A stretch of DNA of 32,000 bases from Halorubrum ruber (GTDB lineage Archaea > Halobacteriota > Halobacteria > Halobacteriales > Haloferacaceae), in the NCBI RefSeq assembly GCF_018228765.1, contig NZ_CP073695.1, positions 2,309,218 through 2,341,217 on the forward strand. The letters run 5' to 3'. A program made the position numbers and the translations under genes. The notes under the pieces were generated by a model, which saw nothing but the letters and a program-made list of their open reading frames with translations, was not told the DNA's origin and ran no database searches. Of this stretch, positions 5,860 to 28,986 are shown piece after piece. Numbering within the stretch: position 1 is the stretch's first letter; each line of letters starts with the position of its first letter.

Positions 5860-6342
5860 ATGGGACGTATTATCAATTACAAGAAAACCGAGCTGTACGA
5901 CACGCTGGTTGATGAGTACGAAGTCTTTGAGAATTACTATGACCTTCTCATCTTCCTTGCGGTTATAGGATATAAGGAAGACAACCCCGTCCGCGAGGGA
6001 TACCGTGGTAGTAGTTCGGAGGGTACAGCTGGTGAATCGGGGCTACATAATGTTTATTCTCAGGATCTGTATCGTACGATTATGGCTAGTCTAGCCTTTC
6101 AGGATACCGGAGACCCAGAGGCTCTCGTTGACGAACAAACACATATGAAAGTTCTTGCTCAGTATGCTGCAGGTGGACTAGAGATTGCCGAAGACGAGTT
6201 CGGAGATATTGCTGGTGATCCTACAGATGCGATAATCAATTATATAAAAATGTCTCAGAGCGAGGGCACCGGAACTGAAGGAGAGCTAGCCAAGATTGTT
6301 CAGAGTTTTGATGACGAGATGATGAACATCGAAGGGGAGTAA
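5860..6342 (+). CDS. Hypothetical 160-aa protein coupled to the ATPase (possibly related to small Dnd-system-associated proteins; unverified)
   Basis: ATG 5860 lies 1 nt after the ATPase stop. The ORF-track start at 5704 would overlap the ATPase by 155 nt and is unlikely. Acidic composition; no motif confidently recognised. Confidence 0.65.
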   Translation: MGRIINYKKTELYDTLVDEYEVFENYYDLLIFLAVIGYKEDNPVREGYRGSSSEGTAGESGLHNVYSQDLYRTIMASLAFQDTGDPEALVDEQTHMKVLAQYAAGGLEIAEDEFGDIAGDPTDAIINYIKMSQSEGTGTEGELAKIVQSFDDEMMNIEGE

Positions 6343-6416: not shown

Positions 6417-8903
6417 ATGGAAGAGGAATCCAATACGCCACTTTGTGGCAAAGAGATTTTTCTCTATCCGGGTGACCCGGATGGAACCGGTATGCTAGCG
6501 TACGATACCACCCAATACAGAGATCAGTATGATAATCTTCAGTTTGCAGACAGTACACAATTTATTAGTTCATTAGAAGAGAATATACGCCTTGAAAATC
6601 GTTCTCTCCTCCGCGTAGCAGAGGGAGAGAGATTTGTCGTACCTGAATACCAGCGGAATTTTACTTGGGAAGAGGATCAACATGAGGAACTTTGGAACAC
6701 TATATTATCTATTCAGGACCTAAAGCCGAAAGCGAATAATCTTCCTGTTGATACTTACTTTGGAACTGTGTACGTCGCCCGCGACGCCGACGGAGATGTA
6801 TTCGAGATTATTGACGGTCAGCAGCGTCTGACCACAGTAGCAATTATTCTAAAGAATCTAAAGCAGCAGCTAGAAGCTCGATTCGACAGTATAGATGGGC
6901 AGCTTCTCGAATATGCACAACATGTCTGTGACCGCCATTTAGAGGATCTATTATTCCGTGCTGACGGTCCGGCTATTACTCCCTTCATTACGTTGAATGA
7001 CCACGATCAGCCGTTCTTTGATATTGTGTTTAAAGAGAAAGAGGACCGGATTAAACCAGTAAAAAATCTCCCGCAATATGATGGACGAAAGACAAACTCA
7101 ATCACTGTGCAGTCACTTCTTGATGAACTTGATATCCCAGAAGAAGCATACGAAGAGGATGAAGACTTTGAGGACACTGACATGCTTGAATCGTACCGCT
7201 ACTATGGAGATGCACATAGACGACTCGTTAATGCTGACAAATTCTACAAGAAAAATATTAGACAGTTCATTGAGAAGGATATCTTTGAAACTCCGGCGAC
7301 AAAGGTCCGAGCGTTGCTAAATCTGACTCACTATATTCTCCGTTCCCTTCGCGTCTCAGAATGTATCTTTGAGACTAGTAATCAGGAGCTCCGAATCGAA
7401 GTCTTTCAATCGCTCAACGACCGTGGTGTTGAGTTATCGAATATGGATAAGATTCGAGCTCGTGTTGTGGGGCGATTCCAAGGAGAATCAGATAGTGGTG
7501 TACAGATCGATCGCTGGGAAAGCGTTGTCAAGACGTTTGGAGGAGATTCCGATGATGTTGAAGACTTTCTTGCCCACTATCTTGCAGCGACAGAGAAAGA
7601 ATTCTCTACGGTCACAGAAGCGAAAAACGAAATGCTCGAAGCATTTCGTCTCAAACAAATCGGTCATCACGATATCCAATCGAGACTGGCAAGCCCAGGC
7701 CAGGCTCGGGACTTCTTAGAAGAATTAGTGAATTATGCACAGCGATATCGTGAAATTGTTTCTGCCGATTTGACAGATGACGATTTAGAGCTGAAAGACC
7801 CAGAAAAAAGCGAGTGTGAGGAGATTCTCAAGCGGCTCAACAAACTTGGAACTAAACAGTGGCGGCCGTTCGTGATGTACGTCTACCAAGCGGTGACGGA
7901 AGCCCCACAAAAAGATCAGTTTTTGGTCGATGTCTTGAAAACAGTAGAGAATATCTCGTTCCGATTTTCTATATCGGATCTTGTCGGCACAGTCGTTGAT
8001 GACACTTATCCGGATTCCTGCCAAGAATTTCGAGAGCTTGAGCAGACGGGGAATCAATTTGATTCCGAGGAGGTATCTGAGATTCTTATTGAGAATATCG
8101 ATAATTCTGCACGACAGATGTTCGGCGAATCATTCATCGATCGACTTGTTAGTAAAGAGAGTTGGAACAACAACAAGACAAAACAACTGTACTTGAAGGT
8201 CGCGGATGAAGACTTTAGGAAGAGAAATCAGGTTGGGATCACGAACTCTCACCTCAGTTCAGACTCTAGTGAAGTACATATTGAACACGTACTCCCAGTA
8301 TCATACATTTTGCCTAAGAAAGACCATCCGTATGCGTGGTTAGAGCACTTCTTCCGTAATAACGGAGATAACAAGATTCGCACTCAGATCGATTATCTTC
8401 AGTCACGTGACGCACACGAGCTGTCACCCGGTGACGACGGCTATGATGAGATCGAGCGAATCGTAAATGGAATCGAGGAACGCTTCGTACGTGATCTTGG
8501 AAACATGATTTTGCTTGACGAAGCGGTCAACCGGCCGATTCAGAATCGTCTCTTTTCAGTCAAGCTCAAGGAGTACCACAAAGAGCACAGCAAGGACATG
8601 GAAAACATCATCAACCAATACTTCGGTACTGATGGAGCAATTGACGAAGCGGAACTTCAGCGCTTACTAGCGCTTGATATGCCCGATGATGAGACGAGAT
8701 CTAGTTCTCCCTCACTTGTTCAAGATTTCAACGAGTGGTGGACGTATGAGCGCCTCGTACAACGGAAATCACAGCTAGTGTCTGAAATTTTGGAATCACT
8801 CACATTCCCAACCAGACCAGACGAGTTCGAACCGTTTGTAGATGATATCGAAAATATAGTCGAGGAAGATGTTCAGAAGCGTTTAGCAGTTCTAACTGTC
8901 TAA
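6417..8903 (+). CDS. DUF262 (ParB-like NTPase) - DUF1524 (HNH-type nuclease) protein, GmrSD/SspE architecture (828 aa)
   Basis: N-terminal VPEYQRNFTWEEDQHEELW and IIDGQQRLTT (DUF262 hallmarks). C-terminal VHIEHVLP and GNMILLDEAVNRPIQNRLFSVKLKEY (DUF1524 hallmarks). TTTTTAAAT box at 6362-6370 suggests its own promoter. Confidence 0.85.
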   Translation: MEEESNTPLCGKEIFLYPGDPDGTGMLAYDTTQYRDQYDNLQFADSTQFISSLEENIRLENRSLLRVAEGERFVVPEYQRNFTWEEDQHEELWNTILSIQDLKPKANNLPVDTYFGTVYVARDADGDVFEIIDGQQRLTTVAIILKNLKQQLEARFDSIDGQLLEYAQHVCDRHLEDLLFRADGPAITPFITLNDHDQPFFDIVFKEKEDRIKPVKNLPQYDGRKTNSITVQSLLDELDIPEEAYEEDEDFEDTDMLESYRYYGDAHRRLVNADKFYKKNIRQFIEKDIFETPATKVRALLNLTHYILRSLRVSECIFETSNQELRIEVFQSLNDRGVELSNMDKIRARVVGRFQGESDSGVQIDRWESVVKTFGGDSDDVEDFLAHYLAATEKEFSTVTEAKNEMLEAFRLKQIGHHDIQSRLASPGQARDFLEELVNYAQRYREIVSADLTDDDLELKDPEKSECEEILKRLNKLGTKQWRPFVMYVYQAVTEAPQKDQFLVDVLKTVENISFRFSISDLVGTVVDDTYPDSCQEFRELEQTGNQFDSEEVSEILIENIDNSARQMFGESFIDRLVSKESWNNNKTKQLYLKVADEDFRKRNQVGITNSHLSSDSSEVHIEHVLPVSYILPKKDHPYAWLEHFFRNNGDNKIRTQIDYLQSRDAHELSPGDDGYDEIERIVNGIEERFVRDLGNMILLDEAVNRPIQNRLFSVKLKEYHKEHSKDMENIINQYFGTDGAIDEAELQRLLALDMPDDETRSSSPSLVQDFNEWWTYERLVQRKSQLVSEILESLTFPTRPDEFEPFVDDIENIVEEDVQKRLAVLTV

Positions 8904-9097: not shown

Positions 9098-9757
9098 TCA
9101 GACTGGTTGCTTTACAAACTCTGTTACAACGTAGAACGGAAGCGTATCAATTAGCGCGACAAGCAGCTTCACGATGTACTGCCCAGCGACGATTGAGGCG
9201 AGTGCCCAGCCCCACGTTGGCTCCCCACCAAGGCCGAGTGCCGGGAAGATAGCGAAGCCGAGCGTGATGAACACGATCGTGTCCACGCCTTGACTGACTG
9301 CAGTAGACCCACAGTTCCGAAGCCAGCGATGGCGACCGCCGGTGCGAGTCTTCAGATTGGCGAATAATCGGACGTCGAGATGCTGGGCGAACGCGAGCGC
9401 GACGACGGAGGCGAGGATGATCGATGCGGAGCCGCCAAGCGTCGATACGAACGCGTCTTGTCCACCGTAGAACGGGGCAGACGGCATCCAAATGGCGAGG
9501 AACACGAGCGCATACGCGATGACGAGCGTGACGACGGTTCCGTTGACCACGGTCGCAGCGTACTCTTTCCCGTGGTACTCGACAAGCAGGTCTGAAGCGA
9601 GGTAAGCCACGCCGAAGGCGACGAAACCGGCGGGGACGGCGACGCCCCCAAGCCCGGGGAGCTCGATCCACGTCAGTTTCGCTGCGAGGACGTTTGCGAG
9701 AACGATTGAACCGGCGAACACGGCGGTGAAGATCGCGCGAGTATCCTCAGTCTCCAT
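9098..9757 (-). CDS. yhhQ: VUT-family (YhhQ/DUF165) queuosine-precursor (preQ0/preQ1) transporter
   Basis: Polytopic membrane protein. The block AQHLDVRLFANLK..RHRWLRNCGSTAVSQGVDTIVFITLGF aligns by eye with E. coli YhhQ QILDVHVFNRLRQ..WWLAPTASTLFGNVSDTLAFFFIAF. Divergent from queD. Confidence 0.8.
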   Translation of the reverse strand: METEDTRAIFTAVFAGSIVLANVLAAKLTWIELPGLGGVAVPAGFVAFGVAYLASDLLVEYHGKEYAATVVNGTVVTLVIAYALVFLAIWMPSAPFYGGQDAFVSTLGGSASIILASVVALAFAQHLDVRLFANLKTRTGGRHRWLRNCGSTAVSQGVDTIVFITLGFAIFPALGLGGEPTWGWALASIVAGQYIVKLLVALIDTLPFYVVTEFVKQPV

Positions 9758-9911
9758 CAGCTGTCACCGTCTTGTATGGGCGTACAGTTTCCTGTGGTTC
9801 GCTGTCTTGAGCTGACCCCAGTAGAAACCGGTGCGCAACGACCGATAGGGTAGACGGTGGATGAGTGTGAGTCGGGTTGCTGTTCCATCGGTGAAGTAAC
9901 GAAACTCAATC

Positions 9912-9919
9912 TTTATATA
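9912..9919 (+). promoter_or_regulatory. TATA box (TTTATATA) for queD-queE(-queC)
   Basis: Ends 22 nt upstream of ATG 9941, consistent with a leaderless transcript. This supports 9941 rather than the track's GTG 9857 as the start. Confidence 0.5.
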
Positions 9920-9940
9920 TTCCCCGAATATTCTTCGAGT

Positions 9941-10402
9941 ATGTCCCGAAGTATATCAAGAGATGAATCCGAATCAGACGTCCTTCGTGAGGCCGGCCAA
10001 CGAACCCTCCACATCGGAGAGGATAACCCCATCCGAATTAGCTCGGGCCACCGTATTCTCCACCACGACGGAAAGTGCTCGCGGCCACACGGCCACAACT
10101 ACGAGATCGCCGTCGAAGTTACCGGCGAACTCATCGAAGAGGGGTGGGTCGTCGACAAAGGTGACGTCACAGACGTCATCGACGCGTGGGATCACCGATT
10201 CCTTGTCGAGGAGGGTGACCCGCTCGTCGACGCATTCGAGGCGTCGGGCGACGGCGACGCCCTCGTCGTCCTCGATCACCCACCAACGGCAGAGGTAATG
10301 AGCGTGCTCCTCGAACAGCGAATGCTCGACGCGTTCCCCGACACCGTCTCCGACGTGTCGGTGTCGGTGAGTGAAACCGGCGAGCTCTGTGCGAGTTACT
10401 GA
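9941..10402 (+). CDS. queD: 6-carboxy-5,6,7,8-tetrahydropterin synthase
   Basis: GHRILHHDGKCSRPHGHNYEIAVEVTG (QueD/PTPS Cys-His-His zinc/catalytic motif). Stop overlaps the queE ATG (TGATG). Confidence 0.9.
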   Translation: MSRSISRDESESDVLREAGQRTLHIGEDNPIRISSGHRILHHDGKCSRPHGHNYEIAVEVTGELIEEGWVVDKGDVTDVIDAWDHRFLVEEGDPLVDAFEASGDGDALVVLDHPPTAEVMSVLLEQRMLDAFPDTVSDVSVSVSETGELCASY

Positions 10403-11178
10403 TGCCAGTCGTAAGCGATGTGGAAGAACCCACAACGGACGCTGACGCGGCTGGTGAGGGCCTCCCAATCAACGAGGTGTTCTACTCGTTGCAGGGTGAG
10501 GGGACGCTCGCAGGCGTTCCCTCTGTCTTCGTGCGGACTTCTGGGTGTAACCTGCGGTGTTGGTTCTGCGATTCCTACCATACGTCGTGGGAGCCGACCG
10601 GCGCGTGGCGCGATGTCGACACGATCGTGGAAGAAGTACAGTCGCACGAACAGGCGAACCACGTCGTACTCACGGGCGGGGAGCCGCTCATCCACGAGGA
10701 GTCCATCGATCTCTTGGAGCGACTCGACGCCGAGGGGTACCACACAACGGTGGAGACAAACGGGACCATCTACCGGGACGCACCAATCGACCTCGCAAGC
10801 ATCAGCCCGAAGCTGGCGAGCAGCACGCCGACGCCGGATCGGGACCCGAAAGGCGAGGGCGAGTGGGAAGAGAAACACGAGCAAAACCGGATCGATATGG
10901 ATGCGTTGTCCCAGATGGTCGACGACTACGAGACGCAACTCAAGTTCGTCGTGACCGATGAGACAGACCTTCCGGAGATTACGGACCTCGTCGATCGAGT
11001 GCGGGCGGCGGCGACGACGACCATTGCTGACGACGACGTGTTGTTGATGCCGGAAGGTATGACGCGGGAGCAACTTGACGGAACGCGAAGCCAGGTGGCA
11101 GAGTTAGCGATGGAGTACGGCTACCGATACACCCCCCGACTCCACGTGGACCTGTGGAATGACGCACCCGGGACATGA
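10402..11178 (+). CDS. queE: 7-carboxy-7-deazaguanine synthase (radical SAM)
   Basis: INEVFYSLQGEGTLAGVPSVFVRTSGCNLRCWFCDS (QueE-type CxxxCxxC cluster motif) and VLTGGEPL. Confidence 0.9.
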   Translation: MPVVSDVEEPTTDADAAGEGLPINEVFYSLQGEGTLAGVPSVFVRTSGCNLRCWFCDSYHTSWEPTGAWRDVDTIVEEVQSHEQANHVVLTGGEPLIHEESIDLLERLDAEGYHTTVETNGTIYRDAPIDLASISPKLASSTPTPDRDPKGEGEWEEKHEQNRIDMDALSQMVDDYETQLKFVVTDETDLPEITDLVDRVRAAATTTIADDDVLLMPEGMTREQLDGTRSQVAELAMEYGYRYTPRLHVDLWNDAPGT

Positions 11179-11263
11179 ACGTCGCCTTGGTCGGCCCGAC
11201 CGATGGAGTGCCGTGGGGGCGTGGTGAACAGGACGACAATTGACTCAACACAACCGAAAATAC

Positions 11264-11953
11264 ATGAGCAATAAAAGCGCGGTCATTCTGGTTTCTGGCG
11301 GGATGGATAGTGCGACAGCGGTGTACGAAGCAATGGATCAGGGGTACGAGCCGTACTTCCTCCACACCTCATATGGGCAACGCACCGAAGACAAAGAGTA
11401 CGAGTGCGCACAGGCACTTGCCGAGGAGGTCGATGCGGCTGACTTCCTCCACATTGAAACGGGCCATCTCGCACAGATTGGGGCGTCGAGCCTGACGGAC
11501 GAAGAGATGGACGTCGCCGATGCTGACTTGGAGAGCGACGAAATTCCCACGTCGTACGTCCCCTTCCGCAACGCGAATCTACTGTCGATGGCAACATCGT
11601 ACGCAGAGGCGACTGACTCGGAGGCGCTGTTTATCGGAGCCCATTCTGAGGACTTCTCCGGGTATCCGGACTGTCGTCCGGCCTTTTTTGACGCCTTTCA
11701 GCAGGTGATCAACGTCGGAACGAAGCCCGAGACGGAAATCGAGTTGAAAGCGCCGTTCGTCGAGTGGTCGAAAACAGACATCGCTGAGCGTGGGTTAGAA
11801 CTTGGTGTCCCATACGACATCACGTGGTCGTGTTACCGGGACGAAGAGCCGGCGTGCGGGACGTGTGATGCGTGTGCGTTCCGGCTTGAGGCGTTCCGAA
11901 ATGCTGGGTCACGTGACCCGATTGCGTACGCTGAGCGACCTAAGTTTTCGTAA
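11264..11953 (+). CDS. queC: 7-cyano-7-deazaguanine (preQ0) synthase
   Basis: AVILVSGGMDSATA PP-loop and C-terminal zinc cysteines WSCY..CGTCDAC. ATG 11264 is preferred over the track's TTG 11240. Confidence 0.9.
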   Translation: MSNKSAVILVSGGMDSATAVYEAMDQGYEPYFLHTSYGQRTEDKEYECAQALAEEVDAADFLHIETGHLAQIGASSLTDEEMDVADADLESDEIPTSYVPFRNANLLSMATSYAEATDSEALFIGAHSEDFSGYPDCRPAFFDAFQQVINVGTKPETEIELKAPFVEWSKTDIAERGLELGVPYDITWSCYRDEEPACGTCDACAFRLEAFRNAGSRDPIAYAERPKFS

Positions 11954-11997: not shown

Positions 11998-12399
11998 TTA
12001 GGATTTGTTGCTGGTGTCGCCAGTAAACTCATCCTCTCCGTTGAGTCGTCCCGTGACTCCATTTATAGCATAGATGAGTGTTGCTGCGACGTCGAACGCC
12101 TCTGTTCGTGACAGTCCCGAGATGGGCTTGGTCACGAACTCTTCTCCGTCCATATTCACACCAGTGATTGGAGTTACCGTATAGTCGCCATCGCCCATCG
12201 TCCCGTCAAGACGAACGAGGATTGTTTGATCGTCATCGTATATCCACTCAACGTAGTACTCATCATGAATCTCTTCGCTCCATCCTGACGGATAATAATC
12301 AAGACGCTCAGTTTCGCTTTCTGGCATGAGACGTATCTTGGTGTCGTCTACAGCAACAAATAAATCTGGTTGCGTGTCCTTCTGATGTAGTCCTCTCAC
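11998..12399 (-). CDS. Hypothetical acidic protein (133 aa) lying between the real and ghost queC 3' ends
   Basis: ORF with haloarchaeal-style acidic composition. No motif recognised. Confidence 0.5.
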   Translation of the reverse strand: MRGLHQKDTQPDLFVAVDDTKIRLMPESETERLDYYPSGWSEEIHDEYYVEWIYDDDQTILVRLDGTMGDGDYTVTPITGVNMDGEEFVTKPISGLSRTEAFDVAATLIYAINGVTGRLNGEDEFTGDTSNKS

Positions 12400-13855: not shown

Positions 13856-15277
13856 CTATCCGGCGAGGAGGTCATATCTACGCTTTACTTCTTGTAATGA
13901 CCCCGTGGATGTCGGAACACCATCAACATCGGCGTCCGGATGATTCCGAGCAGTTTCCGCAAACATCGAAACTCGTTCGAGTTCCTTCCGGATGAGTGTC
14001 CGCTCAATTTCATACTGATCGTCGGACAGCATTTCTGGGTGTCTTTGAGTATCTGGTATTGTGATGAAGTCATGAATTACGGCATATTTTTTACCTTCGT
14101 ATTTTCGAAGGATCCGTCCTCTTCGTTGGACGTATTGTCGTGGATTCGATGTACTTGCTAGGATGTATGCCGTCCGTGTAGCAGGAATATCAACGCCCTC
14201 GTCAAGACATCTAATAGAAGTTAGAACGTCAATTTCTTCCTCATCGAACCGTGTCAACAGCTGTTTTCGTTCCTGTTGATTTTCGCGTGCGGTAAAGCGC
14301 TCAACAGACAAGTTACACTCATTTCGGATTCTCTCTGTTGTCAGGTCTACGTGACGCTGTAATTGGCCATCAACCTCCAATTTGCCATCACTACAGTAGA
14401 CAAGCGTGTGCTTGGTATCTATCTCAGAATTCAATAAATCAATAAGCAAGAATAGCTTCTCACGAGCGGTACCAATTAATCGAGCTCTTTTAAAAAGAGC
14501 TTGCTGTAAAGCAGGATTCTGTTCAAGATTCAAATTCCCTTCTTTGTCATTCGATTTCCCTGCAAGTCGACCGATCTTTGTGGTCAAACGCATGTACTCC
14601 TCCATCTCTTCGTCCTGTAATTCGACTATATGGGGAATGTAGTAATACTCACATAGTGCACCGGCTTCGATAGCTTTCTCAAGTCCATATTCAAAAACGG
14701 TTCCTCCAAAATATGCATCCAATTCTTTCGTCCCTTCTTCATCATACCATCTTTCTGGCGTTGCCGAAAGACCAAGTCGGAGGTCAAACTGATCACTAAG
14801 TGCCTCCTGTGTCTGAGCAGCACCCATATGGTGTACTTCATCTGCAATCAGCATTGAATTCCCGTTAGCCCTTCGAATTGTTTTTCTCGCAGATTCTCCT
14901 GACAGCGTTCGGTGTGTTGTAACTACTACGCAGGTGTCACGCATTCCGTTGTTGAATTCTAGCAGCTCACGTTCAAGCCGAGGTTGCCAATTACGTCGTG
15001 ATTCAAAGGCAAGAACAGGGGTAGCACCGAAATCATCGAGGTTAGATTTCCACTGATTAACGAGATGTTGATATGGCACTGCGACGACGAGCAGGAATTT
15101 TTTATCGACAGACTGATCCACACGCGTCGCGGCAAGGAGGGCTGTGACCGTTTTACCAGTCCCTGTTGCCATTTCTAGTATTCCCTTTCCTCCGGCAGAC
15201 ATCCACTCTTGTATTGCTTCTTGTTGATATGGACGGGCTTCTATCCAATCAGGAACGTGGAGGCCCTCATGAGACAT
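13856..15277 (-). CDS. Superfamily-2 helicase (ResIII + Helicase_C; XPB/Rad25-like DEAH type), 473 aa
   Basis: ARPYQQEAI (Q-like), MATGTGKT (Walker A), LIADEVHHMG (DEVH box), GLSATPER (motif III), LDEGVDIP and QYVQRRGRILR (motif VI). Start at ATG 15277 (MSHEGL..) is preferred because a TATA-like box sits 25 nt upstream, and the longer track ORF would overlap the divergent gene. Confidence 0.85.
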   Translation of the reverse strand: MSHEGLHVPDWIEARPYQQEAIQEWMSAGGKGILEMATGTGKTVTALLAATRVDQSVDKKFLLVVAVPYQHLVNQWKSNLDDFGATPVLAFESRRNWQPRLERELLEFNNGMRDTCVVVTTHRTLSGESARKTIRRANGNSMLIADEVHHMGAAQTQEALSDQFDLRLGLSATPERWYDEEGTKELDAYFGGTVFEYGLEKAIEAGALCEYYYIPHIVELQDEEMEEYMRLTTKIGRLAGKSNDKEGNLNLEQNPALQQALFKRARLIGTAREKLFLLIDLLNSEIDTKHTLVYCSDGKLEVDGQLQRHVDLTTERIRNECNLSVERFTARENQQERKQLLTRFDEEEIDVLTSIRCLDEGVDIPATRTAYILASTSNPRQYVQRRGRILRKYEGKKYAVIHDFITIPDTQRHPEMLSDDQYEIERTLIRKELERVSMFAETARNHPDADVDGVPTSTGSLQEVKRRYDLLAG

Positions 15278-15301
15278 CTTATCTACCTCAAAATGGCCCG
15301 C

Positions 15302-15312
15302 TGATATATATC
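15302..15312 (-). promoter_or_regulatory. TATA-like element (TGATATATATC on + strand) for the helicase gene
   Basis: Located 25 nt upstream of the minus-strand ATG at 15277, within the 165-bp divergent intergenic region. Confidence 0.4.
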
Positions 15313-15442
15313 TAAGCCGTGATGTTAAATTCACCAAAGTTAGGATTCCAAAAGCATCCTTAGCGAGAGTTCGAGTTGTTTTGGTCAAGAGAAGATTTGG
15401 TAACGAGTACTCTTTTACCTCCTCGGGATCGATACGGTTGCA

Positions 15443-15877
15443 ATGACAACGCTTCTGGTACAATCCTGTTCAGACACCAAAAACTCAGTCTCTACGCCCA
15501 CTCCGGCTCTTGATGTATATGATGGATATTTTTATAAAATTATCAAGAAGGCTATAAGAGAAGGAGAGTTTCGATCTGATATCGATATTCGAATTCTATC
15601 TGCAAAGCATGGTCTTCTCAAACCTAATGAGAAGATTCGATCCTATGACCGCCAGATGACTCAATCACGAGCTGCGGACCTTCGAGAGTCTGTCACAATG
15701 AATCTACAAGAACTGGTACAACAAAAGGAATACAACCGGATCGTTCTTAATATGGCCCGCGAGTATCGAAGTTCAATCGGAGAAATTCATGATTACCAAG
15801 GGCAAGTGAGTGAGATCTCTGGGAGTGGTATTGGCGAAAAGGGTGGGAAACTCAAGAAGTTCATCCGGGGAGACTGA
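15443..15877 (+). CDS. CSxTK-motif protein, DUF6884-like (144 aa)
   Basis: LLVQSCSDTK..ALDVYDGYFYK..ILSAKHGLLKPNEKIRSYD. By eye these motifs recur in the C-terminal domain of the 18734-20755 protein (LLIIPCSQTKPY..VSGMYGPVPEEFENISPIKSYE). The family name is from memory and unverified. Confidence 0.7.
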   Translation: MTTLLVQSCSDTKNSVSTPTPALDVYDGYFYKIIKKAIREGEFRSDIDIRILSAKHGLLKPNEKIRSYDRQMTQSRAADLRESVTMNLQELVQQKEYNRIVLNMAREYRSSIGEIHDYQGQVSEISGSGIGEKGGKLKKFIRGD

Positions 15878-15881
15878 CTGA

Positions 15882-17123
15882 ATGGGATTCAAACAAAAAC
15901 AGCATGATAATAATGGATTTGAGATTGCTAATCAAGCAGGAGCAGCACGCACTGGGACACTCCAAGTTGGAGACACAGAATTAAAAACACCAAATCTCTT
16001 TCCTGTAGTGAATTTCTACGCAGGGGGGACCTCATCAAGCCTGTACGGGGGAGGCATACATCGCACAATGAAGGAGTTCATGAACGGAGATGAAGTCATA
16101 AACGGCGGTGACTACAGCGAATACTTTGACGGCGTGATGACGTCTGTGGCTTCTTTAACTGACTACGGGATAACAAAAGAGCGATATGAAGAGTACATTG
16201 ACACTCCAATCAAGGAGAGAGACCTGTTTGATTTTGACGGCGTTCTATTTATTGATTCAGGGGGGTTCAAATTCCTCGGAGACAAGACATTGGATGGTAG
16301 TGATTTTGAAGTCGATGTCGATCAGAGGACAATTATAGAGATTCAACGTAAGCTTGGTGCTGACCTCGTTTTGAATCTTGACCGCCCAATTGAGCCTGAT
16401 GATGATTACGAAACTCGGATTCAAAAAGCACGTATGACGGCACAAAATGTCGATCAATTCCTTGAATTGACTGACCGACAGAAACAGACACGGTACCTAA
16501 CTCTTCATGGGTACAACTACTCTATGCTGAATACGTTTCTCACCGAGATTGAGAAAGTAATTGGAAAAAACCGTGTACACCGAGAATTTGACGGCGTAGC
16601 TCTCGGAAGCCTGGTTCCGCTTAAAGATAACAAGGGTAAGTTGATCACTGCGGTGAGCGACTGCAGAGAAGTCCTCGACGACTGGGGCTTTGATGATCTT
16701 CCATTACACGTCCTTGGTATTTCTTCAAGCGCAATTCCACTGCTTGCAGCAGTTGGTGCGGATACATTCGACTCATCGTCTTATCTTCACGCTGCAATTA
16801 ACGGGAAGTATCATACGTCGTTGTACAATACAGAACCGCTTGATGACGTTGATTTCTCAAACTGTGATTGCCCAGTCTGCTCTGACGACAAGCTTGTGAA
16901 TTGGATGGAGGGTGATGCCGAGTATCAGAAAGACAAGCTTGGAGCAGTATCAATGCATAACCTCATAATACAGAAAGAGGAAATCAGTCGCGTTAGGGAA
17001 GCAATCAGCAAGTCGGGAACCGACGGTTTGATTGAATATTTCGAACAATCGCTCAGCCGTCACAAATCGATGCAGCAGCATGCACACAGGGTTGTGAATG
17101 ATTCTCTTGGAGGATACTTCTAA
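15882..17123 (+). CDS. tRNA-guanine transglycosylase-fold protein, DpdA-like (413 aa, no PUA domain)
   Basis: GAARTGTLQVGDTELKTPNLFPVVNF, FIDSGGFKF, ALGSLVP, HVLGISS, GADTFDSSSY, and zinc motif CDCPVC followed by SMHN. Starts 4 nt after the upstream stop. Confidence 0.85.
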   Translation: MGFKQKQHDNNGFEIANQAGAARTGTLQVGDTELKTPNLFPVVNFYAGGTSSSLYGGGIHRTMKEFMNGDEVINGGDYSEYFDGVMTSVASLTDYGITKERYEEYIDTPIKERDLFDFDGVLFIDSGGFKFLGDKTLDGSDFEVDVDQRTIIEIQRKLGADLVLNLDRPIEPDDDYETRIQKARMTAQNVDQFLELTDRQKQTRYLTLHGYNYSMLNTFLTEIEKVIGKNRVHREFDGVALGSLVPLKDNKGKLITAVSDCREVLDDWGFDDLPLHVLGISSSAIPLLAAVGADTFDSSSYLHAAINGKYHTSLYNTEPLDDVDFSNCDCPVCSDDKLVNWMEGDAEYQKDKLGAVSMHNLIIQKEEISRVREAISKSGTDGLIEYFEQSLSRHKSMQQHAHRVVNDSLGGYF

Positions 17124-17125
17124 CA

Positions 17126-18679
17126 ATGTCAACAACAAAAACTCCCCAGGTAAATGAAGTAAACGAGTTCCTAGAAATTGCGAGTGACTTCGAAGATCCG
17201 CTCGAAGTAATCCGTGAATCCCTGTCTAATAGCTACGATGCAGGGGCTACTGAGGTCGAGATTACGATTAGAGACAGACCGATTGGATCCGAGATCGTGA
17301 TCGAAGATGATGGTGACGGGATGGACTATGCTGACCTAGAATCCTTCTTCGATTTGGGCAATTCGACGAAACGAGACCCGTCCTCTGATGCCATCGGCTA
17401 CAAAGGACATGGGACAAAAATATTCTATAAAAGCGAGGAGGTACTCGTCAATACTTCCAAAGAAGGAACGAATCTCCGTGCGCAAATGGAACAGCCCTGG
17501 GAAAAACTCAACAACCGAGTAATGCCTGAATACGAAGTTAGAGAACGCTCGGTGAAGGAGGGTAATAACGGGACTCACATCCGCATTACCGGATTCAAAT
17601 CCGGACGTGGATTCTCTCCTTCCTCACTTACTTATAATAAAATTGAACACTATTTGAAATGGAAGACGCTTGCAGGATCCACCGCTCACTACTTCACAGA
17701 TGACTATCACGAGATGGATATATATATCACGTTGGGTGACGAGATCGACGATACCCAGGAAACGCTCAAATTAGATAATAAACTCGAATTTCCCGATGAA
17801 CAGATTGAGCCCGGAGAAGGAAAATTTCCGGAATCAAGGATGTGTAAGCACTATCCACCTCGTGAGCTGACGGTGGAGACTGATGACGGAGATACAGCAA
17901 TTATCGAAGTAGTAGGCATGATTGGTGGGAAAGATGCTCGCAACGAACTCCCAACATACGGGAAGCATTCAGCGCAATTCGGGATCTGGCTTGCTAAGGA
18001 TTATATCAAAGTCGAACGTGTCAACGAAGTCATCTCACATGACAACGAGTTCCTCCACTTCTTTTTCGTGGCAAACTGCCAAGATATTGAGCTCTCTGCG
18101 AACCGTGAGAAAATCCGGAACAAATCGAGCTCTATCTACCAAGCAATTAAAGAAGAATTGAGCCACTATCTTTCCAAAATAGCTTCTGATCCTTGGTTCA
18201 AGGATTATCTCAATCAGCGACGAAAGGCCAAACTCTCGCGTCGAGCAGAATCTCAACAGTCTTCAGTCGAAGACCGTGAGAAGCGAATTCTCGATCGTGA
18301 GCAGTTTACTCCCTCTAATGATGCTGAGGTAGTTCTCGGTCTTGAAAGATCAAACCGGGAAGGTGCTCTCCCTAAGATTGTCGTTGAGGACTACGACCCC
18401 AGTGTAGAGGTTAACGCACTCGTCAAGCAGGATGATTCACTCTATGCGAGTTCGATCCATCATAAACTCACAGACCATTTTGAGGCAGACAAGCCTTTGG
18501 AGTCTGTTGATAAAATCATCTGCTGGTCGTATGGTGACCCCGACCAACTGAGTGAACTTGAGCGTCATGGATATCATGGGGGAGATATCACATTTGACCT
18601 CAATACAGGTCGGATTGAGTATCAGAACGGTCGAAAGCATAATATCCATATCGTTTCTGTCGAACAACGGTTTCAGTAG
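17126..18679 (+). CDS. GHKL-superfamily (HATPase_c_3 / MORC-Hsp90-like) ATPase (517 aa)
   Basis: N box IRESLSNSYDAGAT, G1 box IEDDGDGM, G2 box IGYKGHGTKIFY. Starts 2 nt after the TGT-like gene stop. Confidence 0.8.
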   Translation: MSTTKTPQVNEVNEFLEIASDFEDPLEVIRESLSNSYDAGATEVEITIRDRPIGSEIVIEDDGDGMDYADLESFFDLGNSTKRDPSSDAIGYKGHGTKIFYKSEEVLVNTSKEGTNLRAQMEQPWEKLNNRVMPEYEVRERSVKEGNNGTHIRITGFKSGRGFSPSSLTYNKIEHYLKWKTLAGSTAHYFTDDYHEMDIYITLGDEIDDTQETLKLDNKLEFPDEQIEPGEGKFPESRMCKHYPPRELTVETDDGDTAIIEVVGMIGGKDARNELPTYGKHSAQFGIWLAKDYIKVERVNEVISHDNEFLHFFFVANCQDIELSANREKIRNKSSSIYQAIKEELSHYLSKIASDPWFKDYLNQRRKAKLSRRAESQQSSVEDREKRILDREQFTPSNDAEVVLGLERSNREGALPKIVVEDYDPSVEVNALVKQDDSLYASSIHHKLTDHFEADKPLESVDKIICWSYGDPDQLSELERHGYHGGDITFDLNTGRIEYQNGRKHNIHIVSVEQRFQ

Positions 18680-18733
18680 ACGGCTGCAGGTAGCCGACTT
18701 TATCACATTCCGACTTCAATCAAAAGCCATAGA

Positions 18734-20755
18734 ATGGCATCGTTTGAGACTACATCTTCTGACGAGGCCGGTAATGCTCGAACCGGAACTCTCCACACTC
18801 CTCACGGTGATGTGGAAACGCCAGCGTTCTTCCCAGTTGTCAATTTCATAGGCGGACCAGATGAGAAATCAGGGGGAATATGGAGCCGACTTCGGAATCA
18901 CCTATTCGGCGAACCGGATTTTCAGGGAGCGATGTTTCAAGCGATGAGCTTCCTCGATTTTAACATCTCTCCCGATTCTCTCGATAACTGGCGATCAAAG
19001 TCTCTTCATGAGCATTTCACTGGGCATGAGCCAGTTAAGCCATATCATGATCAGCCGGAAGACTTTACCAAGCCGTTGTTTGTTGACTCTGGCGGATTCA
19101 AACTGCTGAATTCCGATACGTTCGGAGATAGACCTGAGGAGGGTGGTTCAGATAACGACTGGTCGATATACACCAATCCTGAGAGCATCCTTGAATTACA
19201 ACTTGACTACGGCGCGGACATAATTGCCACACTAGATTACCCCATTCCACCGAATCTCAACGAGGAAGAGACGACTCAGCGAATGGAAGACAGTATTGAT
19301 AGTGCTATACGCTGTCTTGAGCTTCTTGAACAAAGAGATGAGTCACCAGCAGTCTATGTGGCCATTCATGGCCACGACTACGAAACGATCAACTGGTATG
19401 TTGGTACGTTTCTTGACCGGGCAGGAGACCTTGACAACGCGTTCGAAGGGTTTGCAGTAGGGTCGCTAGTTCCACTCCGCACCAACGTAGAAACACTCGT
19501 TGATATTGTACAGGGTGCGAAGGATGCAATTCCTGAAAATCGGGTAGACGACCTCGGACTGCACCTGTTCGGCATTAGTGGGAAGTTCACTGCACTTCTT
19601 GCTCTTCTGGGTGCAGACTCGTTCGATTCATCTAGCTACATCCGTGCTGCCCAATTCAAGAAATTCATCAACCGCGAAATCGGTGTTGACGACGGTACGA
19701 CCGTTCGGCACCCAGATTCGGATAGCCACGATCTTGGCGATTTTGGTGTCGACATAGAACGGACATCTGAAGCGCGCTGGGCAGCGGACTGGTCAAAGTT
19801 CTCTGCCGATCAGATCCCCGACGACTGGGATTGCCAGTGCTCAGCTTGCGAAGCACTCCGCGAGATTGGGTATGACCAGATGCAGTCCACCCTATTCGAC
19901 AGCAAATCGTATGACCAGAGCGGAGATCATATGAAGAGCGATTTCTACGCGCTAATGGGGTATCACAACTTCCACGTTTATCAAGACGAGATGGACTATG
20001 TCCGCAATCTTATCCAACAGGGAGATGGTGAACTCCTCGACTACGTCGCTAAGATGGCCCGTAATGATGTAGGCGGCATTAGACAGGCACTCAAACGGGC
20101 TACTGTCCGCGACAGAGATTTGGCTACAGAACTCCGAGAACGTGGTTACGACAGACTCGTCGCTGAACGGGCGGACGGAGAGCAGGAACGCCTCAATGTC
20201 GACCTTCCGGTTGAAAGCCACGAGATCTCTCTTGAGTACACGCCCGAGGACTTCAATGTCTTAGAGCGTGACGACTATTGTCCGGGTGACGAACGAGTAC
20301 TTCTGATCATACCCTGCAGTCAAACCAAGCCGTACTCAAATTCCCGCACTCACCGAGTAGTCGCTGACGCGACTACCGAATGGAAGGATGAAATACACAA
20401 AGTCACCGTTTCAGGGATGTACGGTCCTGTCCCTGAAGAATTTGAGAATATTTCACCGATCAAATCATACGAATACGTCCTAACTGATGCCGAAACAGAC
20501 CGTCAGAATCTCATCAAAAATCGACTCGTCGAATATTTAAATCGTTTTGGCGGTGACTTCGATGTAATTGTTGGCTACGCCACGAGTAAGACATATCGTG
20601 AAGTCATCAAGCGATCCTTGGAAGAGTATGGCGAAGGTGTAGTTTTGCCTCGTGAACCCGAAATGCGAGCGTTGACAGAACACTTCCGTACAACGAATCT
20701 TCAGCAATTGGCAGACTATCTTGAGGAAGAATTAGCACCCCAAACCCGGAATTAG
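18734..20755 (+). CDS. TGT-fold / DUF5591-like fusion, ArcS-like but lacking PUA (673 aa)
   Basis: The N-terminal half has GNARTGTLHTPHGDVETPAFFPVVNF, FVDSGGFKLL, AVGSLVP, HLFGISG, GADSFDSSSY, and zinc motif CQCSAC followed by GYHNFH. The C-terminal roughly 155 aa (about nt 20290-20755) has LLIIPCSQTKPYSNSRTH..SGMYGPVPEE..YEY, as in the ArcS DUF5591 region. Confidence 0.85.
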   Translation: MASFETTSSDEAGNARTGTLHTPHGDVETPAFFPVVNFIGGPDEKSGGIWSRLRNHLFGEPDFQGAMFQAMSFLDFNISPDSLDNWRSKSLHEHFTGHEPVKPYHDQPEDFTKPLFVDSGGFKLLNSDTFGDRPEEGGSDNDWSIYTNPESILELQLDYGADIIATLDYPIPPNLNEEETTQRMEDSIDSAIRCLELLEQRDESPAVYVAIHGHDYETINWYVGTFLDRAGDLDNAFEGFAVGSLVPLRTNVETLVDIVQGAKDAIPENRVDDLGLHLFGISGKFTALLALLGADSFDSSSYIRAAQFKKFINREIGVDDGTTVRHPDSDSHDLGDFGVDIERTSEARWAADWSKFSADQIPDDWDCQCSACEALREIGYDQMQSTLFDSKSYDQSGDHMKSDFYALMGYHNFHVYQDEMDYVRNLIQQGDGELLDYVAKMARNDVGGIRQALKRATVRDRDLATELRERGYDRLVAERADGEQERLNVDLPVESHEISLEYTPEDFNVLERDDYCPGDERVLLIIPCSQTKPYSNSRTHRVVADATTEWKDEIHKVTVSGMYGPVPEEFENISPIKSYEYVLTDAETDRQNLIKNRLVEYLNRFGGDFDVIVGYATSKTYREVIKRSLEEYGEGVVLPREPEMRALTEHFRTTNLQQLADYLEEELAPQTRN

Positions 20756-22093: not shown

Positions 22094-22861
22094 ATGACAT
22101 CCGATCAAATTGCTGCGTACGTACGAGCATCCACCGACAAGCAAGAGACATCCCACCAGCGGGACGATATCAACGAATGGGCCAAGCAAAACGGACATGC
22201 TCCGACCGAGATTGAGTGGTACGTCGACCTCGCGGAATCAGGTAGCGACCCCGGGCGCAAACAATTCAATTCACTCATCGACGACGTCGAAGCAGGCAAT
22301 TATGAGCGGGTGATCACGTGGGAGATCAGTCGATTATCGAGACTCGGGAGCACGTATCAGCGATTCTTTGAAGTGGCAGCTGACGCCGACACGATCGTGA
22401 ATGTCACGAACGGGTGGACAGACACTATCCTACCCGACGGCACCGGCAAGCTCATCGCAGATATAAGCGCGGCAGTTGCCGAGGAGGAACGCAGAAAGCT
22501 CATCAGTCGGATCAATTCAGGAGTAAAAAGAGCACGAAAAGAGGGCAAGTGGTTGGGCGAAGTTCCCACGGGATTTGACCGGAACGAACTGGGATACCTA
22601 CGACCACTAATCAACCCAGGAGAGGGCAAAGTGGGATACCTCGAAATGCGGGAAGCGCTCGTCGACATCGAGGAGGGAGAGTCATACAATTCTGCAGCTG
22701 CATCGATGGCGACGACCCGACAGACGTTGAGCCGAATCGATCAGGATGACGAGCGGCGATCATGGTACCTTGACGGACGAGCCGAGGACGATCGTGTCGC
22801 TGAAGCTCTCGAAACAGTGTCGAGTAGTAGCGATAACTTGAGGACTCCGACAGACTCCTAG
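22094..22861 (+). CDS. Small serine recombinase (resolvase/invertase family, 255 aa)
   Basis: AAYVRASTDKQ (catalytic Ser context), VITWEISRLSR, and C-terminal HTH-like SYNSAAASMATTRQTLSRI. Confidence 0.85.
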   Translation: MTSDQIAAYVRASTDKQETSHQRDDINEWAKQNGHAPTEIEWYVDLAESGSDPGRKQFNSLIDDVEAGNYERVITWEISRLSRLGSTYQRFFEVAADADTIVNVTNGWTDTILPDGTGKLIADISAAVAEEERRKLISRINSGVKRARKEGKWLGEVPTGFDRNELGYLRPLINPGEGKVGYLEMREALVDIEEGESYNSAAASMATTRQTLSRIDQDDERRSWYLDGRAEDDRVAEALETVSSSSDNLRTPTDS

Positions 22862-23294: not shown

Positions 23295-23777
23295 ATGTCA
23301 AGACCTCTTCCCGCTGATTGGAGAAACCGACGTAGAGAAATTCTCCGCAGAGATGATTACATGTGTCGGAATTGCGAAAGACATGAGGATATGCGAAACG
23401 TCTCGCTCGAAGTCCATCATATTGTTCCACGTCGTCGAGGCGGAACCCATGAAAAGTACAACCTCGTTACGATGTGCAGTCACTGCCATGACCGAGTACA
23501 TAATGGTGATGTGGAAACACCAGACGATCCGTTAGGATATATTGACCGTATAAAACAAGAAGTGAGGAGCTTTCGGTGGCGACAAGCGAATATCACAGAT
23601 ATCGACGCACAGTCTATTGCCAGAACAGTTGCCGGGTCATTCCCGGACCCCACCTCGATTCAAACTCATACGTCATTAAGAGATACTCTCAGAAATCCTC
23701 CGCAACGAACATTCCCCAACTTTTTGCTCGATATTGGTTATCATGTGACAGAAAGAGAGGCCACTTGTGCTGAGTGA
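23295..23777 (+). CDS. HNH endonuclease (160 aa)
   Basis: CRNCERHE..LEVHHIVPRRRGGTHEKYNLVTMCSHCHDRVH (CxxC..HH..N..CxxCH HNH motif). Confidence 0.85.
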   Translation: MSRPLPADWRNRRREILRRDDYMCRNCERHEDMRNVSLEVHHIVPRRRGGTHEKYNLVTMCSHCHDRVHNGDVETPDDPLGYIDRIKQEVRSFRWRQANITDIDAQSIARTVAGSFPDPTSIQTHTSLRDTLRNPPQRTFPNFLLDIGYHVTEREATCAE

Positions 23778-25955: not shown

Positions 25956-26369
25956 ATGGAGATTTCAAAGCAACTTCGGTGTCTGTTCTCGGGTAAAGTC
26001 GAAGAGCGTGATGGGTCATATGTGGTTGAGGTACCACAGCAAGAGATCACTCTTGGCGAGCTACAGGCAGACAAGACGTATCGTGTGGCAGTCCTGCCGT
26101 CACCCGAGACCAACGGGGCCAAGAATACGAACACCGATCAACAGCCCGAGCAAACGCCACAAACGCCCCCTGTCGAAGAGGGCGAACAACGTACAGTCGA
26201 GATCGAAGATATTGGTGACCAGGGCGACGGTATCACCCGTGTAGAGCGTGGGTTCGTCGTCATTGTTCCCGATACCAAACAAAGCGAGCGTGTTACTATC
26301 GAGATTACCGATGTCCGCGAGAATGTGGCCTTCGCGGAAGTTGTCGAGCGCATCAGTTATTACGAGTAG
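25956..26369 (+). CDS. TRAM-domain protein (137 aa)
   Basis: The C-terminal VEIEDIGDQGDGITRVERGFVVIVPDTKQSERVTIEITDVRENVAFAEVV is a typical TRAM/OB-like module. Confidence 0.75.
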   Translation: MEISKQLRCLFSGKVEERDGSYVVEVPQQEITLGELQADKTYRVAVLPSPETNGAKNTNTDQQPEQTPQTPPVEEGEQRTVEIEDIGDQGDGITRVERGFVVIVPDTKQSERVTIEITDVRENVAFAEVVERISYYE

Positions 26370-28654: not shown

Positions 28655-28750
28655 TCGCGGGACAAGTGCGGACCGGATGCGGAGCGGCGGACCCCTACGG
28701 GATTGCGTCCTAAGTGCGGAGCGAATCCCTGTGTCGCATAACGCTACGCC
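28655..28750 (-). pseudogene. Degenerate, inverted tRNA-Leu(UAG)-derived fragment
   Basis: The minus strand reads GGCGTAGCG-[27 nt]-CTTAGGACGCAATCCCGTAGGGGTCCGCCGCTCCGCATCCGGTCC-[GCACTTGTCC]-CGCGA. This matches the intact tRNA from the D/anticodon-stem junction to the acceptor end. The T-loop (TCCGCAT vs TTCGAAT) and T-stem are broken. Confidence 0.6.
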
Positions 28751-28901: not shown

Positions 28902-28986
28902 GCGCGGGTTGCCGAGCCAGGCCAAAGGCGTAGCGCTTAGGACGCTATCCCGTAGGGGTCCGCCGGTTCGAATCCGGTCCCGCGCA
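28902..28986 (+). tRNA. tRNA-Leu (anticodon UAG), class II, no encoded CCA
   Basis: Manual fold. Acceptor GCGCGGG/CCCGCGC with discriminator A. Anticodon stem TAGCG/CGCTA with loop CTTAGGA. Long variable arm CCCGTAGGG. T arm GCCGG-TTCGAAT-CCGGT. Confidence 0.9.

Follow-up and report, generated by a model that had tools for sequence, protein, structure and literature searches.

Organization of the cassette and its flanks

The 32,000-nucleotide stretch of Halorubrum ruber DNA analyzed here (contig NZ_CP073695.1; hereafter, the window) contains a four-gene cassette on the + strand that encodes a DUF6884 protein, a first protein of the tRNA-guanine transglycosylase (TGT) fold (TGT1), a GHKL ATPase, and a second TGT fused to a DUF5591 domain (TGT2) (Table 1). 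An earlier reading made from the letters alone (the sequence-only reading) had assigned these genes, along with a divergent superfamily 2 (SF2) helicase, to a DNA-directed 7-deazaguanine system. Based on the analysis reported here, the cassette is probably an archaeal Dpd-like DNA modification module, a reading to which we give a probability of about 0.65, with the GHKL ATPase in place of DpdB and the DUF6884 and DUF5591 domains in place of DpdC.

The four open reading frames (ORFs) follow one another with spacings of 4, 2, and 54 nt, in agreement with the operon previously read at 15443-20755. Pfam gives the order DUF6884, TGT, HATPase_c_3, and TGT plus DUF5591, the GHKL ATPase thus lying between the two TGT-fold proteins as had been described, and every family that the sequence-only reading named for a domain search (TGT, DUF5591, DUF6884, HATPase_c_3, and ResIII/Helicase_C) was matched. 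For the divergent helicase, the ORF tool sets the start at TTG 15463; the in-frame ATG at 15277 is taken as the real start, this residue also being the one from which the alignment with L001, a near-identical Halorubrum locus, begins. With this start, the divergent spacer measures 165 bp, the length given earlier. It contains ATATATAT at 15304-15311, a promoter-like box located 27-34 nt upstream of the helicase ATG, and an operon-facing box, TCTTTTAC, at 15411-15418. Of the TATA-like boxes said to face both ways, that of the operon is T-rich and the weaker one.

The GC content of the cassette is 0.44-0.50, compared with 0.69-0.73 for the core at 29-32 kb, and the end of queC lies 1.9 kb from the helicase stop; both the AT-richness and this distance agree with the earlier reading. 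The window as a whole looks haloarchaeal, and its AT-rich islands extend over 3-9 kb and 12-28.6 kb.

Table 1 Coordinates of the cassette, the preQ0 supply genes, and the Pbe-type genes in the window.
Feature	Position	Strand	Basis
DUF6884 protein, 144 aa	15443-15877	+	Pfam DUF6884 8e-14; YaaA 4.6e-7
TGT1, 413 aa	15882-17123	+	Pfam TGT 1.3e-27; PDB 1iq8 2.7e-24
GHKL ATPase, 517 aa	17126-18679	+	Pfam HATPase_c_3 3.4e-17
TGT2, 673 aa	18734-20755	+	Pfam TGT 2.7e-31 and DUF5591 3.3e-19; PDB 1iq8, 2q07
Divergent intergenic region, 165 bp	15278-15442		Sequence read directly
PLD-less PbeA-type SF2 helicase, 473 aa	13856-15277	-	Pfam ResIII 1.7e-25, Helicase_C 3.8e-15
YhhQ/Vut_1 preQ0 (queuosine-precursor) transporter	9098-9757	-	Pfam Vut_1 3.4e-39; TIGR00697 127.8 bits (cut-off 50.95)
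queD	9857-10402 (true start probably internal)	+	Pfam PTPS 2.2e-19
queE	10402-11178	+	Pfam Radical_SAM 2.2e-17
queC	11240-11953	+	Pfam QueC 2.5e-73
pbeB-like ORF, 52 aa	3670-3828	+	ORFs and sequence
pbeC CxC ABC ATPase, CLC zinc hook	3828-5858	+	PADLOC PbeC 7.1e-229
pbeD/DndE-like ORF	5860-6342	+	Same gene order with helicase in L068, L069
GmrSD/DUF262-DUF1524 nuclease, 828 aa, directly after pbeD	6417-8903	+	Pfam GmrSD_N 1.4e-29, GmrSD_C 3e-7

Active site and family of the two transglycosylases

TGT2 consists of a full TGT domain (residues 1-445) fused to a DUF5591 domain of the ArcS-C1 type (513-638). The latter bears PCSQTKPYSNSRTH, which corresponds to the ArcS-C1 motif PCx3KPYx2Sx2H; in 21 TGT2 homologs, the P, C, K, P, Y, and S of this motif are invariant and the final His is conserved in at least 90%. 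No Pfam hit to a PUA domain is observed in TGT1 or TGT2, and the C2 domain is likewise missing from TGT2. Moreover, the ~35 residues that follow DUF5591 in TGT2 and the ~20 that follow the TGT domain in TGT1 are too few to hold a PUA domain, whose absence the sequence-only reading had noticed.

Alignment with the arcTGT of P. horikoshii (Ph) shows that D95, D130, D249, and the zinc site C279/C281/C284/H307 are kept in both proteins, so the full transglycosylase signature described earlier holds for the catalytic Asp and the zinc residues. TGT1, TGT2, and all their close relatives carry a His in place of the Gln of tRNA TGTs (Ph Q169, Zm Q203), and their next loop reads G-S-L-V-P-L; also, Gly196 of arcTGT is replaced by Ser in TGT1 and TGT2. 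In the DpdA from S. Montevideo, His181 occupies the Gln position and the loop M208-V209-P210-L211 fits preQ0 (PMC10164549). A comparison with the residues of the DpdA active site (Asp95, Asp130, His181, Asp256, M/L-V-P-L, and CxCx2C...H; PMC10164549) finds a counterpart for each of them, the aligned positions being D-F-D-H-GSLVPL-D-CCCH in both TGTs. This His-type signature is suggestive of a DpdA-like function, although it does not prove it.

Nonetheless, the family label "DpdA paralogs" of the sequence-only reading is not retained. Judged by the NCBIfam equivalog cut-offs (200 bits for DpdA, NF041059; 350 for TgtA, TIGR00432; 440 for ArcS, NF040592), neither TGT passes any of the three models. 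TGT1 scores 137.8 bits with TgtA and 29.7 with DpdA, and TGT2 scores 98.1 bits with TgtA, 19.0 with DpdA, and 82.8 with ArcS, in this last case through a match confined to model positions 288-432. The nearest relatives of both are arcTGTs; a structure comparison of TGT2 again recovered arcTGT and bacterial TGT and added nothing decisive. TGT1 and TGT2 stem from the arcTGT lineage and would work like DpdA.

An exhaustive HMMER search with TGT1 returned 510 clusters of relatives. The nearest ~84 (50% identity) are all of the His/G-S-L-V-P type, at least 45 of them being TGT-DUF5591 fusions that leave no space for the C2 and PUA domains, and the Gln-type arcTGTs rank below them. TGT2 homologs number more than 300, nearly all haloarchaeal and generically annotated, with PF01702 and PF17884 as their only domains.

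In comparison with housekeeping arcTGT and ArcS, the cassette enzymes share the catalytic residues, the zinc site, a preQ0-type pocket (x-V-P-L), and the motif PCx3KPYx2Sx2H. They differ in the replacement of Gln169 by His and of Gly196 by Ser, in the absence of C1, C2, and PUA from TGT1 and of C2 and PUA from TGT2, which keeps a full catalytic TGT domain, and in their sporadic, island-borne occurrence. These likenesses raise the alternative of an RNA-directed paralog set, where TGT1 and TGT2 insert and process preQ0 at extra tRNA or RNA positions with a housekeeping que supply, G+13 in Thermoplasma being the comparison case for an extra deazaguanine position in tRNA. The closest characterized relatives are indeed arcTGT and ArcS, the ArcS catalytic motif is intact, and the cassette lies beside an apparently conserved Halorubrum yhhQ-queDEC locus. 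However, the missing domains are those that bind tRNA, His takes the place of the Gln used by all tRNA TGTs examined, the distribution is sporadic, AT-rich, and plasmid-borne, and neither a GHKL-transducer ATPase nor the helicase and nuclease neighbors described below, DpdJ/K homologs included, have a role in tRNA modification. We consider this alternative decidedly unlikely.

TGT islands of other kinds are also found. The Haloferax alexandrinus plasmid pBNX82-4 (L064, 3095-12562) encodes a 964-aa protein that passes the DpdA cut-off (279.7 versus 200 bits), together with a 344-aa His-type TGT, a hypothetical protein, a "BREX system ATP-binding" protein, QueD, and a DUF262 protein; the 344-aa TGT is present on ~10 other haloarchaeal plasmids. 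In metagenome-assembled genomes (MAGs) of Methanofastidiosa and Thermococci (L036-L047, e.g., L037 7511-12055), PUA-less His-type TGTs of ~345 aa are conserved beside a divergent 808-aa HerA-like (DUF87) helicase and a 507-aa protein, with PAS/HATPase_c downstream. The idea that the short Methanofastidiosa proteins are split housekeeping arcTGTs was rejected, their flanks being PAS/histidine-kinase-like (downstream) and HerA-like (upstream), with no PUA protein.

The DUF6884 protein and the GHKL ATPase

The DUF6884 protein shows the YaaA/DpdC-like "cantaloupe" fold and carries the motifs CSDTK and LSAKHG, the motifs of this fold family having been described (PMC11701544). In 30 homologs, the C, S, and K of CxxxK and the LSAxxG motif are invariant. 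The Pfam YaaA score is 30.0 bits, barely over the cut-off of 29.6; in PADLOC, the protein matches PDC-M57A (3.4e-9) and DpdC (8.7e-7), the latter partially, over positions 39-119 of the 319 of the profile. By its motifs, it is a candidate dPreQ0 nitrile-converting enzyme with a DpdC-like role. In place of the single DpdC-like candidate proposed before, two are then present, this standalone protein and the DUF5591 domain of TGT2.

The model of the GHKL ATPase (AlphaFold2, predicted local distance difference test, pLDDT, of 77) displays a Bergerat ATP-binding domain followed by a transducer, the layout of the GHKL/GHL family, with a long helix at 336-390 and a confidently modeled C-terminal α/β domain (395-517) that is not assigned to a type. 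Foldseek retrieves Hsp90, MORC2-DNA, GyrB 43K, and MutL-N at ~1e-12 over ~430 aligned columns, and NCBIfam gives weak matches to the BbrUII/HgiDII restriction enzyme, MutL, and MzaB. In 25 homologs, E31, N35, D61, G63, G65, and G94-G96 are invariant, this protein being the best-conserved member of the cassette (58-82% identity). The window contains no ParB-like gene (DpdB), and the GHKL protein is the sole ATPase of the operon. We propose it, by analogy, as an ATP-driven DNA-handling partner in a DpdB-like role; the GHKL-plus-transducer layout that it shares with the DNA-acting MORC, MutL, and GyrB favors a DNA-directed module.

Conservation and distribution of the cassette

A scan anchored on TGT2, with one genome per species and full-length loci only, gave 34 loci, 33 of them from haloarchaea (~20 genera) and one from a Poribacteria MAG. 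In 29 of the 34, the trio DUF6884-TGT1-GHKL is located within 10 kb of TGT2, mostly directly adjacent and with varying gene order, and look-ups anchored on the GHKL gene return the same set. In all, the conserved cassette is present in ~35 haloarchaeal genomes of many genera. The retention of the cassette genes in at least 30 genomes excludes a chance arrangement.

On the other hand, six loci (L015, L018, L021, L030, L032, and L068) have TGT2 with no trio inside 10 kb, and one (L072) has the trio with no TGT2 in the same range. This would fit two independent systems standing side by side, a self-sufficient TGT2-DUF5591 and a separate DUF6884-TGT1-GHKL unit, whose targets, motifs, and products may differ. 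A separate TGT and a separate Cys-x3-Lys domain are present in each unit, and the two units are placed on opposite strands or ~5 kb apart in L010, L011, L017, L019 (where ~5 kb separates the trio from TGT2), and L027. Nevertheless, their proximity in the 29 loci, the similar sizes of the families (302 versus 261 hits), and the common orientation with a 54-nt gap in the window make such a separation unlikely.

The GC content of the cassette ranges from 0.42 to 0.56 in every locus, and its replicons include chromosomes and megaplasmids, as well as plasmids of Haladaptatus, Natrinema, and Halorubrum xinjiangense. Within the genus Halorubrum, variants of TGT2 are merely 43-49% identical to that of the window. 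The low GC, the plasmid locations, and the divergent variants inside one genus point to horizontal transfer; near-identical DNA on plasmids was looked for, and none was found. With its sporadic, AT-rich, partly plasmid-borne distribution and its TgtA and ArcS scores below threshold, the cassette is not a housekeeping set. A viral origin was considered and rejected, the best GenBank phage match to TGT1 having 23% identity (Xanthomonas/Erwinia jumbo phages). In IMG/VR, relatives of the GHKL ATPase reach only 26-28% identity, without a TGT nearby.

Two loci have their own particularities. The plasmid of Haladaptatus sp. YSMS36 (L063, 11989-16688) encodes a divergent pair of TGT2-DUF5591 paralogs, which share 47% and 45% identity with the TGT2 of the window, and also holds the trio, a DpdJ/K-like pair, and a 1493-aa superfamily 1 (SF1) helicase. 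In the Ca. Poribacteria MAG (L032, 5942-11893), a full-length TGT2-DUF5591 homolog with 35% identity comes directly after a 1103-aa PLD plus SNF2/Helicase_C protein of PbeA-like architecture and is followed by an Fe-alcohol dehydrogenase.

Linkage to preQ0 supply

Genes queD-queE-queC are next to the cassette in 13 loci, and a type I GTP cyclohydrolase (FolE) makes the pathway complete in three of them. In the window, yhhQ-queD-queE-queC (9098-11953) has a GC content of 0.56-0.61 and lies between the two AT-rich islands. The yhhQ-queDEC genes of Halorubrum alkaliphilum (L023, 6697-9549) are 93-94% identical to them, whereas the cassette beside them is another variant (43-59% identity) in another orientation and with unrelated outer flanks. 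This difference in identity indicates that cassette and que genes were juxtaposed independently in the two species.

Other neighbors recur as well. A 133-aa ORF without family match (11998-12399, - strand) is convergent with queC, and its homologs (64-89% identical) are found in L001, L011, and L025, at the same loci as the que genes and 2.0-3.5 kb from queC. Also, a ~160-aa protein is encoded just downstream of queC or next to TGT2 in eight loci (e.g., L013 7340-7834) and a 414-aa protein next to TGT2 in 10 (e.g., L002 12062-13306); neither has a match in Pfam, NCBIfam, PADLOC, or PDB.

Defense genes around related loci

The neighboring ORFs of all loci were clustered, and cluster representatives were scanned against profiles. 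A ~1350-aa DpdJ-like helicase (NCBIfam DpdJ 9.5e-51) and a 149-aa DpdK-like PLD protein (3.4e-12) are present in nine loci, with scores far below the equivalog cut-offs (172.6 bits against 800 and 46.3 against 100, respectively). Moreover, a five-gene set is found in 5-10 loci, composed of a ~1575-aa DEAD plus MZB helicase, two ~300-aa proteins, an nSTAND-like protein of 973 aa that weakly matches DpdH, and a 230-aa protein. In Halomicrobium zhouii, the DpdJ/K-like pair borders the trio on one side and the five-gene set borders it on the other. Further recurrent neighbors are PbeA/DpdE-like helicases with HhH, an SF1 helicase with a RecB-like nuclease, and GIY-YIG nucleases; GmrSD is also found nearby. 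In Haloferax prahovense (L071, 15716-20355), a prokaryotic Argonaute (pAgo; Piwi, 839 aa) and its PLD-like partner lie ~4 kb from the cassette, which confirms the defense-island setting.

Such a setting would also suit TGTs that act themselves as defense effectors, by excising or exchanging viral 7-deazaguanines (e.g., those of HVTV-1) or by conjugating deazaguanine to protein like Cap9/Cap10. Haloviral DNA carries preQ1 and other deazaguanines (PMC6884629, PMC10516641), and the TGT-family Cap10 of type IV CBASS has been repurposed for protein deazaguanylation (bioRxiv 2025.04.06.647259). However, the recurrent linkage to preQ0 synthesis, including complete folE-containing sets, argues for preQ0 insertion. 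In addition, of the components that characterize type IV CBASS (CD-NTase, QueC-like Cap9, and zinc-less Cap10), the window holds no CD-NTase and no extra QueC-like gene, and both TGTs keep the two catalytic Asp as well as the zinc site, which Cap10 has lost along with its nucleic-acid interface. An effector of this kind is therefore very unlikely.

The divergent helicase and a Pbe-type unit

The divergent helicase matches PADLOC PbeA at 3.8e-165 over profile positions 247-668 of 672, with no PLD hit, and scores 560.7 bits with TIGR04095 (cut-off 600). PbeA being a PLD/HKD nuclease fused to an SF2 helicase, the protein of the window corresponds to its helicase part. Among the TGT2-anchored loci, it occurs near the cassette in just three: L001 (of the same lineage), L020 (at the locus edge), and L068. 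Elsewhere, a PLD-less helicase-pbeB-pbeC-pbeD operon is carried by a Natrinema plasmid and by pHTIA of Halorhabdus tiamatea, the latter copy being interrupted by IS66 (L068, L069). With only three loci near the cassette and the pbeBCD genes as operon partners elsewhere, the helicase is a Pbe component and not a conserved cassette gene, and its inclusion in the module by the sequence-only reading does not stand.

The window also has pbeB-, pbeC-, and pbeD-like genes, which are probable partners of the PLD-less PbeA helicase and possibly the reader or effector of a DNA mark; the roles of Pbe components are known from other work (PMC6459918, PMC10853773). In contrast to the phosphorothioate-associated PbeABCD, the helicase lacks PLD and is 7.5 kb apart from pbeBCD on the opposite strand (- versus +), so that they do not form one operon, no dndCDEA genes are found in the 32-kb window, and a GmrSD gene follows pbeD. 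In PADLOC, this nuclease is HEC-06/Orf5/SspE-like, and L010 and L019 likewise have GmrSD-like genes close to the cassette; the nuclease of the window is a candidate nuclease effector of the Pbe-like unit.

The remainder of the window shows features of mobile DNA and an island boundary. At its left edge (12-2812), a UvrD-like DNA helicase (PHROG 9.1e-30) overlaps a primase-like 441-aa ORF (PHROG 3.4e-10), a pair that resembles a mobile-element replication module; the PHROGs scan of the unassigned ORFs of the window gave no match beyond these two. The downstream part of the island codes for a serine recombinase (resolvase), an HNH endonuclease, and a TRAM-domain protein (22094-22861, 23295-23777, and 25956-26369), the HNH endonuclease being 78% identical to one near the que genes of Haloplanus ruber (L011). 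A tRNA-Leu (28902-28986) marks the exact point at which the AT-rich island gives way to the GC-rich core. Repeats of att type derived from this tRNA were considered as island borders and rejected, since a 19-bp inverted partial copy (28685-28703), located 200 bp upstream, is the only one; the window showed no direct repeat resembling att.

Proposed mechanism and comparison with known systems

By analogy with bacterial Dpd, the cassette would most likely write 7-deazaguanine into the DNA of its own cell as an antiviral self-mark. In such a scheme, preQ0 would come from the adjacent QueD, QueE, and QueC or be imported by YhhQ. TGT1, TGT2, or both would then exchange it for guanine in double-stranded DNA, the Asp in FDSSSY acting as the nucleophile and that in DSGGF as the general acid. 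DpdA requires an ATPase (PMC10164549), and a dimerizing GHKL-transducer ATPase may provide the ATP-dependent DNA handling that is attributed to the ParB-like DpdB in bacteria. Conversion of the inserted nitrile to an amide or amidine is then predicted for both Cys-x3-Lys "cantaloupe" domains, that of the DUF6884 protein and the ArcS-C1/DUF5591 part of TGT2; the product would be dADG, dG+, or a lysyl adduct. The mark would finally label self DNA for neighboring helicase/nuclease restriction modules, which differ by locus; in the window, the candidate is the Pbe-type unit formed by the PLD-less PbeA helicase, pbeBCD, and GmrSD.

The likeness to the Dpd system of Salmonella Montevideo (DpdA-B-C plus DpdD-K) comprises the TGT fold, the catalytic Asp pair, the zinc site, and the base-recognition His, along with an ATPase partner, a candidate nitrile-converting protein of the YaaA/DUF328 superfamily, que linkage, and location in a genomic island; also, the flanks of the cassette in other haloarchaea carry DpdJ-like and DpdK-like homologs. 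In contrast, the cassette TGTs are arcTGT-derived, the ATPase is of the GHKL-transducer and not of the ParB-like type, the host is an archaeon, and a second TGT is present, as are two candidate nitrile-converting domains, of which one is part of a fusion. A parallel for the fusion is found in Vibrio phage nt-1, whose DpdA2 and DUF5591-only ArcS2 lead to dG+ in DNA in E. coli (PMC10516641). Both cases pair a TGT-family DNA transglycosylase, putative in the cassette, with a PUA-less DUF5591 (ArcS C1) that acts, or in the cassette would act, on preQ0 in DNA; the version of the cassette differs in being fused (673 aa) and cellular and in its second TGT, DUF6884 protein, and GHKL ATPase. In BREX-related capture (BRC), a TGT homolog without DpdB or DpdC is predicted to be a DNA self-marking module, archaea included (PMC12839542). 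The HerA/FtsK, PglZ, DUF6079, STAND, and DUF4007 components of BRC are all missing from the window, and the partners in the cassette are of the GHKL, DUF6884, and DUF5591 types.

Several observations weigh against a DNA-directed module. The best solved structure for both TGTs, by sequence and by fold, is the tRNA-acting arcTGT (1iq8), and DpdA structures give no hit at E<0.01. We infer the DNA substrate from genomic context, and this context can be read otherwise: the adjacent que genes may be a housekeeping copy, their adjacency being equally compatible with a role in tRNA, and the varying restriction-like genes of the flanks could simply reflect the clustering of defense islands. The four-gene core has no recognizable nuclease or reader, the C-terminal domain of the GHKL ATPase shows no clear PD-(D/E)xK motif, and the 32-kb window contains none of the DpdE/F/J helicases or the DpdK PLD protein of the Dpd restriction module. 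Also, no viral homologs were found, TGT2 having no relative in IMG/VR.

In favor of the module are the conservation of the cassette, the que linkage, the DpdJ/K-like neighbors, and the DpdA-type His. The sequence-only reading of a DNA-directed deazaguanine system, with a GHKL ATPase and an ArcS-like enzyme in the DpdB and DpdC roles, accordingly survives on these points and loses the helicase and the DpdA label. Its statement that it recognized the gene combination from no described system is likewise upheld in part. The literature searches returned the bacterial Dpd system, the phage DpdA1-4/ArcS2 enzymes, the Pbe system, and the BRC prediction, and no description of the four-gene cassette was found, although an earlier mention may exist; the DpdA2-ArcS2 pair of phage nt-1 is a partial precedent.

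A bolder version, which we regard as unlikely, would have deazaguanine written into the archaeal chromosome with a GHKL clamp as the DNA-opening motor, perhaps as two marks and perhaps read by Pbe. For example, TGT1 and the DUF6884 protein may produce dADG, while TGT2-DUF5591 may produce dG+ or a lysyl-amidine adduct. In this version, the PLD-less Pbe of the window, Halosimplex, and Natrinema may read the mark, phosphorothioate having been swapped for deazaguanine as the self-signal. No report of 7-deazaguanine bases in cellular archaeal DNA was found in the literature.

Implications

A wider family of PUA-less TGTs, comprising at least 84 clusters (50% identity), shares the His/Gly-Ser-Leu-Val-Pro signature, and many of its members are fused to DUF5591. 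Because its members are annotated as "tRNA-guanine transglycosylase," they are missed by archaeal annotation, PADLOC, and NCBIfam. Several cassette-bearing strains are available in culture collections, which makes the prediction directly testable. Moreover, the varying helicase and nuclease partners, among them Pbe-type units that lack dnd, would allow a switch of restriction modules to a new self-mark to be put to the test.

If the proposed reading is true, DNA modification with 7-deazaguanine would occur in cellular archaea as well as in bacteria and viruses, and the cassette would represent a second, independent recruitment of a tRNA transglycosylase lineage to DNA, in this case from arcTGT and not from bacterial TGT. 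Finally, a GHKL-type motor would then be able to stand in for the ParB-like DpdB, a point of relevance to why DNA transglycosylation depends on ATP.

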